DNA of 64,000 bases from assembly GCA_964016885.1 (NCBI GenBank), contig OZ024743.1, positions 24,490,001 to 24,554,000 of the forward strand, given 5' to 3'. A program made the position numbers and the translations under genes. Source of the DNA: Eledone cirrhosa. Taxonomy: Eukaryota. The notes under the pieces are model-generated. The model saw only the letters and a list, made by a program, of their open reading frames with translations, did not search any database and was not told the origin of the DNA. Positions 44,521-45,834 of this stretch are shown piece after piece (positions within the stretch are counted from its first letter, which is position 1; the number at the start of each line of letters is the position of its first letter).

Positions 44521-45564
44521 AATACTACAAGCTTGTGGCTAGAATGTCTCGTGAAAGAATCGCTTAACAGATTTTATGGGCAAAAAAAACCGGTAGGAGA
44601 CCCCTGTGTAGAGCCCGAGAGAAATGGCAGGATAACATGCATGAGCTTGGCTGGTGTCGCTTGGGTATCCAGCTGGATCAATTAGAGACGGTTGCTCCTG
44701 AAATGAGCCGCTGGAAGGAGTGTGTGAGGACCCTTCCCTCACGCCCCCCCCCTCCAAAAATAAGTGGGCGAACGGGAAGAAGAGTGAAAGAAGAAAAGGC
44801 TATATAAGTATATATATATATATATATATATATATATATATATATATATATATGCATATATATATATAACACTGATGTTGTCTGTGTGTCCTCATTTTTG
44901 CAAAGTCTATACAAATCCACATTTCTACTCCGATTGACTTCAAACTTACATCTATATATTCCTTGCGGCCTAAAGATAGAAAATCTGTTGTTAAAGGGTG
45001 TTAGGCGCCGGTCATCCATCTCCGTCGCACTCTTATAATATCTGTATGTATGTCTGGCTGTCTGCATAACGTCATTCTGACGTATTATCTTCGCTACATT
45101 CACACACATACATGCGCGCACGCACACACACACGCGCGCGCGCACACACACGGACACGCACATATATATATACATATATACTTATATATACATATATATA
45201 CACATATATACATATACACACACATATATACACATATACATATATATATATATATATATATATATATATATATATATATACACATATATACATATACACA
45301 TATATAGATATACACATATACACATATACACATATATAAATATACACATAAAAATATATACATACACACATATATTTATATATATATATATATATATACA
45401 TACATACACACATATATATATAAGCATACATACACACACACACACACACACACACATATATATATATATATATATATATATATATATATATATATATATA
45501 TATATATATATATATATATATATATATAATATAAGATCAAAAGATGGTTAAAGGAGTTCCATGT

Positions 45565-45633
45565 ATTTTATTATGCGCATTTCAAAAACAAACATCATCA
45601 TGCAATAATATTTGTGTTTTCATCAGATAAAAC
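45565..45633 (-). ncRNA. Type I hammerhead ribozyme, intact core
   Basis: Minus strand: GTTTTAT CTGATGA [AAACACAAATATTATT-GCAT-GATGATGTTTGTTTTT] GAAA TGCGCA TA ATAAAAT; 7-bp stem I, ~16-bp stem II with G-U pairs, palindromic stem III; cleavage 3' of 45572. Confidence 0.85.
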
Positions 45634-45834
45634 AGGAGAACATGATATGAAGGCTAAAAAACACTTGTGGATAGTGCAGTTTTAAATCAACATATATATA
45701 TATATATATATATATATATATATATATATATATATATATATATATATATATATATATATATATATATATATATATATATATATATATTAGTTTTGCGAGG
45801 TTTTTTATATGAAATCGTGCGTCGAAACAAATAT

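Follow-up and report, generated by a model that had tools for sequence, protein, structure and literature searches.

The 64,000-nucleotide stretch of Eledone cirrhosa DNA analysed here (the window) contains a 163-bp insert in a (TA)n tract that carries an intact type I hammerhead ribozyme motif on its minus strand and is one copy of a young, likely thousand-copy repeat family. The reading we favour, at about an even chance, is that the insert is a non-autonomous element derived from a pseudo-LTR (pLTR), a dispersed retrozyme-type monomer, moved in trans into (TA)n by the enzymes of Neptune-type Penelope-like elements (PLEs). Mobilisation by Penelope enzymes in either of two forms, with the insert as such a non-autonomous element or as a truncated autonomous one, is probable. 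The insert is an ordinary kind of mobile DNA, and its ribozyme is predicted, by analogy, to work like the hammerheads of PLE pLTRs or of retrozymes. The features on which the analysis draws are collected in Table 1.

Table 1. Features of the insert and of related sequences in the window (positions within the window).
Feature	Position	Strand	Remarks
Whole insert	45529..45691	-	163 bp, 29% GC; one copy of a young, high-copy family
(TA)n tract, element's 3' side	45456..45528		73 bp; likely target
(TA)n tract, element's 5' side	45692..45787		96 bp
5' leader	45642..45691	-	predicted weak hairpin and U6 run
Stem I, 5' strand	45627..45641	-	8 proximal bp, CC internal loop, 5 distal bp
Catalytic box CUGAUGA	45620..45626	-	
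Stem II	45584..45619	-	16 positions, 15 pairs, loop GCAU
Catalytic box GAAA	45580..45583	-	
Self-complementary 8-nt palindrome AUGCGCAU	45573..45580	-	
Predicted cleavage site after AUA triplet	45571..45572	-	from the hammerhead consensus
Stem I, 3' strand	45556..45571	-	
3' end of element	45529..45555	-	joins (TA)n, stops 43 nt past the cleavage site
Second full type I hammerhead	core 36158	+	5-bp stem II, UGCA palindrome, AUA site after 36189
Third family, six copies	14860-15056, 34273-34414, 39316-39512, 57176-57355, 60038-60268, 60603-60734		
Decayed Penelope-like reverse transcriptase (RT)	29333-29786, continuing to about 30260	+	DKG motif; broken by SINE-like repeats

The long (TA)n tracts that a first-pass annotation of this DNA had described on either side of the insert are present, and the insert lacks an ORF, as that annotation stated: no ATG-started frame extends to its 3' end. 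With 52 TA tracts of at least 20 bp in the window, a repeat-rich stretch of animal DNA, TA flanks alone say little. No terminal repeats were found in the insert, and with neither terminal inverted repeats nor a tRNA-like head it was rejected as a MITE or a tRNA-derived SINE.

The minus strand folds into a full type I hammerhead, confirming the earlier call: the core is intact, with CUGANGA, GAAA and a U-H at the cleavage site, and stem I is open-ended. The proximal helix of stem I pairs 45634-45627 with 45571-45564, and past the internal loop the distal helix pairs 45641-45637 with 45560-45556. Position N17 is A45572, placing the predicted cut between 45572 and 45571. Stem II had been described as 16 bp, which is right for the number of stacked positions and one too many for the pairs, since position 4 is a C.U mismatch; three of the 15 pairs are U-G wobbles. 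The stem III described as palindromic does lie in an 8-nt palindrome, AUGCGCAU, which is modelled to form an 8-bp helix between two copies; within a single molecule it gives a stem III of 2 bp closed by a GCGC loop. The word "minimal" in the earlier description is not apt, since the type I motif is complete and its stem II unusually long. That long stem and its A-U closing pair (A10.1-U11.1) are the sole unusual features of the hammerhead. A G10.1-C11.1 pair is highly conserved in hammerheads, typical though not absolute; the second hammerhead in the window also has A-U here, and G10.1 was seen by eye in loose-end subfamilies of the insert's own family.

The hammerhead motif at the insert is real and above chance. 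A type I descriptor matched none of 20,000 shuffles of the insert, and it matched 2 of 100 block-shuffled windows compared with two matches in the real window, at 45626 (minus strand) and 36158 (plus strand); two further descriptor rows at 27218 were discarded because stem I failed. Rfam returned 0 matches at gathering score across the 64 kb, and no hammerhead model was among its 14 matches to the insert at E up to 10. The second hammerhead was likewise missed by the Rfam hammerhead models, with 7 sub-threshold matches there, and we treated the sub-threshold matches at both places, mostly to snoRNA and miRNA models, as chance. Seven metagenome loci found by pattern scan share the 21 core bases; having neither contiguous stems I and II nor insert sequence, they were rejected as relatives and put down to chance. 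For longer relatives, the pattern scan gave 0 and 0 in viral sequences and 0 in prokaryote genomes.

The insert is the only copy in the 64-kb window, so that the earlier description of it as solitary is accurate locally, and only locally, because the family is high-copy in sequencing-run contigs. Contig pieces or reads from 4 of the 24 listed runs were compared with 45520-45701, and three runs (X1, X4 and X16) gave records; the fourth, X21 (1.94 Gb of raw reads, organism D), gave 0 reads, a result that does not count as a test. No RNA run is among those listed with insert sequence, which counts as evidence in neither direction. Run X1 contributed 3,433, of which 1,102 were at least 99% identical, 1,319 were 95-99% identical, 852 were 90-95% identical and 160 were lower. 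Summed X1 depth over the element was 0.77-2.29 million (interior bins) versus 12-39 for eight long single records; summed contig depth is not a copy number, and division by 31, the largest contig-piece overlap, gives 634-6,168 copies, from which we infer a family of about 10^3 copies or more in the genome.

Variation within the family was assessed from X1 variants and from loose-end rows. Ten variants reach 5% of the depth. The 19 core positions contain none of them, an absence without statistical significance (P 0.29). Five of these common variants fall in paired positions: four keep the pair, all by one-sided changes, and one breaks a distal stem I pair at 34% of depth. The variant table holds no two-sided compensatory change. 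By eye, the loose-end rows (15 of 64 shown) include two stem II subfamilies, one in which the insert's three U-G wobbles are replaced by Watson-Crick pairs and one with a different distal sequence that is paired again; the long stem II therefore looks like a family trait. Damaged cores were also seen by eye in two loose-end rows: a 7-record X1 consensus has a changed A9, and one X16 record lacks five core bases. An ADAR-edited template was rejected, since A-to-G change on the RNA strand accounts, by eye, for just 1 of the 10 common variants.

Words of the insert occur in 20 runs representing 17 organism codes and 16 studies, as recent horizontal transfer of a hammerhead element among many species would lead one to expect. 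We nevertheless consider such transfer highly improbable. The two other-organism runs compared gave only 2 (X4) and 4 (X16) records, and close matches there have a depth of 3-5, whereas those runs' long records, with short, poor and unrelated matches, reach 56 and 75. Moreover, one X4 record, identical to the insert at 150 of 150 positions, is joined to foreign DNA through a doubled GATC, the pattern expected of a proximity-ligation junction. The X4 and X16 matches (from 2 of 16 other organisms) fit trace carry-over of a very abundant repeat, and the presence of a stray read identical to the insert leads us to infer that the insert's sequence is a common haplotype of the family. A high-copy repeat at trace depth in many organisms' runs, as here, can mimic horizontal transfer.

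The minimum-energy fold of the insert is not the active fold, and its stability is unremarkable (z -1.27; 16 of 200 shuffles were equally good). In energy predictions that ignore concentration and tertiary contacts, the active fold would cost 5.9 kcal/mol as a monomer versus 0.6 kcal/mol as a double hammerhead; the predicted optimum for two cofolded copies is -43.9 kcal/mol, compared with -43.3 for the exact double hammerhead and -31.8 for two monomers. Efficient cutting is predicted only when two copies pair through the palindrome, and because the ribozyme needs this second copy, a lone one is predicted to be poor at cutting RNA. Published accounts describe pLTR hammerheads whose helix III is short and palindromic and which work as dimers, and report poor cleavage by palindromic-helix-III monomers, slow even in dimers (PMC4209133, PMC6765202). 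For the axolotl retrozyme, monomer cleavage reaches 6-22% within an hour and is far exceeded by that of dimers (PMC7229834), and in Xenopus one of nine dimer elements cleaved, as reported in bioRxiv 10.64898/2026.07.22.740005. Since the folding predictions match these published palindromic hammerheads, the lone insert copy is predicted to be nearly silent.

This bears on the suggestion in the first-pass annotation that the ribozyme could cut host pre-mRNA, and on the related idea of a domesticated intronic ribozyme, cutting or regulating a host transcript in the manner of the conserved intronic hammerheads of amniotes. The intact core and precedents such as RECK (PMC6155905) would be in keeping with domestication, which we regard as very unlikely given that the insert is one among many near-identical young copies, that its stem III is 2 bp, and that the monomer is predicted to misfold. 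Nor was any host exon recognised in the window: of the 354 complex ORFs lying outside three zones marked as retroelements (four intervals), the 300 longest were searched and one matched Pfam, with a transposase-type HTH; small or domain-free exons escape such a search. Xenopus retrozyme copies are described as depleted from introns (bioRxiv 10.64898/2026.07.22.740005), and the published hammerheads with a palindromic stem III that perform poorly as monomers (PMC4209133, PMC7229834) further disfavour pre-mRNA cutting. The suggestion is thus not supported.

The ends of the copies bear on how the family spread. At the locus the hammerhead lies near the 3' end of the element, followed by a short tail, in a (TA)n target, and the 5' end varies among copies, all of which are hallmarks of Penelope-like insertion. 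Because the element's DNA continues for 43 nt past the predicted cut site, the template RNA was not cut there. Some copies run 30-38 nt or more beyond 45695 with non-TA sequence on the 5' side, as seen in 15 X1 records and in one X16 record that has 38 extra letters and 1 difference from the insert in 123 bases. Other copies enter TA at the insert's own 5' end, where the last bin has a depth of 59,131, or at least about 50-80 copies after the same division; it is therefore likely that tens of copies or more share this junction.

A possible but tentative alternative to our favoured reading is that the insert is the 5'-truncated 3' end, a single pLTR, of an autonomous Neptune-type PLE. The shared 5' junction would then be a truncation hotspot, and the ribozyme would behave just as in the non-autonomous reading. 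The longer copies, including the near-identical X16 one, are explained just as well by simple 5' truncation of an autonomous element, which counts against our favoured reading. At the junction there is an ATA match with the target, a Neptune-like RT remnant lies within the window, and the depth of the terminal TA bin, a crude measure, amounts to 15% (3' end) and 4% (5' end) of the local peak, all of which suit truncation; in addition, most PLE insertions are reported to be 5'-truncated with a single terminal repeat (bioRxiv 10.64898/2026.07.22.740005). However, depth stays high up to the insert's 5' end rather than falling steadily toward it, and among the 64 loose-end rows, the 15 shown include no internal truncation into TA. 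Furthermore, the insert has no ATG-started frame to its 3' end, whereas the ORF of the anole element starts at stem II (PMC11167929). No ORF for a Penelope-like RT plus GIY-YIG is attached to the insert at its locus. The insert was not filed as an autonomous PLE because neither an ORF nor a tandem is attached.

The retrozyme side of the favoured, non-autonomous reading rests on a non-coding unit of 163 bp, reaching about 200 or more in the longer copies, that is low in GC, has a type I hammerhead and is without LTRs. No head-to-tail joint was found among the 3,433 X1 records, whose contigs are short and break at TA, in a comparison limited to 45520-45701, which a retrozyme-type unit may exceed. 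The X1 table contains a single internal skip, of 85 bases, and a single short step back; two of its 3,433 records fit two places. A proven retrozyme would show tandem units and circles, and we did not file the insert as one. The annotation had offered a PLE pseudo-LTR fragment or a retrozyme-like monomer, and this proposal is supported; the two are probably one continuum, to judge by the published argument that animal retrozymes derive from PLE pLTRs (bioRxiv 10.64898/2026.07.22.740005).

Spread at the DNA level, with the insert as cargo of a larger repeat, a satellite or a segmental duplication and its hammerhead as a relic, appears unlikely. Contigs break at (TA)n, which would hide any shared outer flanks, and a MITE-like element with 30-bp terminal inverted repeats adjoins the insert (45833-46250). 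Yet the insert itself has no terminal repeats, the loose ends on the 3' side are mixed (agreement 0.67-0.79), and the stem II variants keep their pairing.

Other hammerhead sequences occur in the window. The second full hammerhead sits in a non-coding partial tandem with a 323-bp period (35918-36032 and 36241-36355, 94% identical) and is preceded by a 93-bp inverted 5' piece at 35824-35916, the usual PLE arrangement; 35824-36355 is a retrozyme-like unit in a PLE-style (pseudo-LTR-like) arrangement. Unlike it, the insert locus shows no partial tandem, inverted piece or pLTR partner. This second hammerhead shares the insert's palindromic design and is also predicted to depend on dimers (7.4 versus 0.4 kcal/mol). 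A third family, with six copies, retains the GAAAC-stem III-GUC half of a hammerhead (clear by eye in five of the six) followed by a tail of about 110 nt, and the 3' end abuts (TA)n in all six. On its 5' side most copies have an inverted copy instead, or the sequence is cut off, mostly near stem II; the copy at 60603 switches no more than a few bases from its predicted cut site.

The decayed RT at 29333-29786 is the only match to a PLE protein in the window and, at 16 kb from the insert, is a candidate mover only. A word-indexed protein search with this fragment gave no match, and an exhaustive one gave 212 relatives at E up to 0.001. Six of the eight relatives scanned carry a C-terminal GIY-YIG domain and 17 of 23 long ones a CX2-5CxxC linker, on which grounds the RT is Neptune- or Nematis-like.

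Several further repeats surround these elements. The MITE-like element at 45833-46250, beside the insert's TA tract, has perfect terminal inverted repeats, and a Mariner-like element with terminal inverted repeats lies between TA tracts at 54214-55104, with an HTH_32 match below the curated cut-off. An element of about 2.8 kb seen by eye at 46940-49790 is flanked by short TA and has long inverted arms at about 46945-47900 and about 48900-49785; it is possibly a foldback element or a large MITE. At 34870-35390 a long palindrome, nearly perfect, was noted by eye, with arms of about 250 bp each and its centre near 35100. Decayed LINE-like sequences occupy 40300-44500 and 61664-63340, together with a 558-aa frame for RT plus zf-RVT; we take them to be RTE-like and nested CRE/R2-like. 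The common SINE-like repeat of the window presumably resembles octopus SINEs. Octopus vulgaris is reported to have 31 recently active Penelope-like families, in an article whose main text does not use the word ribozyme (PMC13282606).

How the favoured non-autonomous element might move can be outlined from characterised PLEs. The uncleaved RNA of a master copy would be bound by a PLE RT/GIY-YIG protein, whose endonuclease would nick AT-rich DNA, and reverse transcription would begin internally, close to the fixed 3' end. Synthesis would stop after about 165 nt (about 200 nt or more in longer copies), and a short ATA match would join the product to the target. The ribozyme might act in tandem or paired source transcripts, trimming or circularising the RNA, and a lone copy such as the insert would be a mostly silent passenger. 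The purified anole PLE protein is reported to nick AT-rich DNA, to start inside the RNA and to use uncleaved template (PMC11167929). The Neptune linker has been proposed as the source of microsatellite bias, a 30-40-bp tail is described as typical, and non-autonomous PLE derivatives exist (PMC8557442).

With the insert, a well-known class gains a hammerhead repeat family that is young and abundant and has an unusually long stem II. We found no such hammerhead family for a cephalopod in the literature, and repeat libraries and supplements may contain one. Its young, dispersed copies, likely thousands, would form a test set, through strand bias and pair spacing, for the burden that dimer-type hammerheads place on host transcripts. 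The family would also test, outside vertebrates, the 2026 proposal that retrozymes are non-autonomous Penelope derivatives (bioRxiv 10.64898/2026.07.22.740005). A more far-reaching idea, which we consider unlikely, is that the family is a "hammerhead SINE", dispersed and never in tandem, whose near-identical copies, thousands in number and each with a 16-position stem II, saturate the TA microsatellites of this genome and impose a genome-wide RNA cleavage load. Since such copies would be armed only by palindrome pairing, those within one pre-mRNA or on two transcripts would cut each other, and the load would depend on copy number and be visible as depletion of sense-strand intronic pairs.

The insert most resembles the pLTR hammerheads of Neptune and Poseidon, which are type I with a short palindromic helix III that needs a dimer, lie a few tens of bases from the 3' end, target AT-rich or microsatellite DNA, and come in longer and shorter 5' forms (PMC4209133, PMC8557442). 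Unlike canonical PLEs, the insert locus has no ORF, tandem or inverted piece. Its stem II of 16 positions compares with 4 bp in canonical hammerheads and 6-8 bp in the PLE variants described in these two sources, and it differs from the PLE hammerheads described there in having A10.1-U11.1 rather than G-C and no extra base after position 9. With non-LTR retrozymes it shares a non-coding, low-GC, type I unit of the 150-450-bp class (PMC7229834, bioRxiv 10.64898/2026.07.22.740005), a likely copy number in the thousands and a dimer-favoured cleavage, predicted here, like that of axolotl (PMC7229834); in contrast to retrozymes, neither the window nor the X1 records contain a tandem array or head-to-tail joint, and the copies lie in (TA)n. 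Newt satellite 2 and Schistosoma Sm-alpha likewise place a type I hammerhead with an internally looped stem I and a weak helix III in a short non-autonomous repeat (PMC6155905, PMC6765202). The insert departs from these in having no Pol III promoter recognisable by eye and a U6 run before the ribozyme, and because its stem II is far longer, the usual loop1-loop2 contact probably cannot form as in Sm-alpha. Finally, the insert is, like RECK and other amniote intronic hammerheads, a solitary type I motif in non-coding DNA (PMC6155905), but unlike those described there it is young and multicopy and lies in no recognised host gene.
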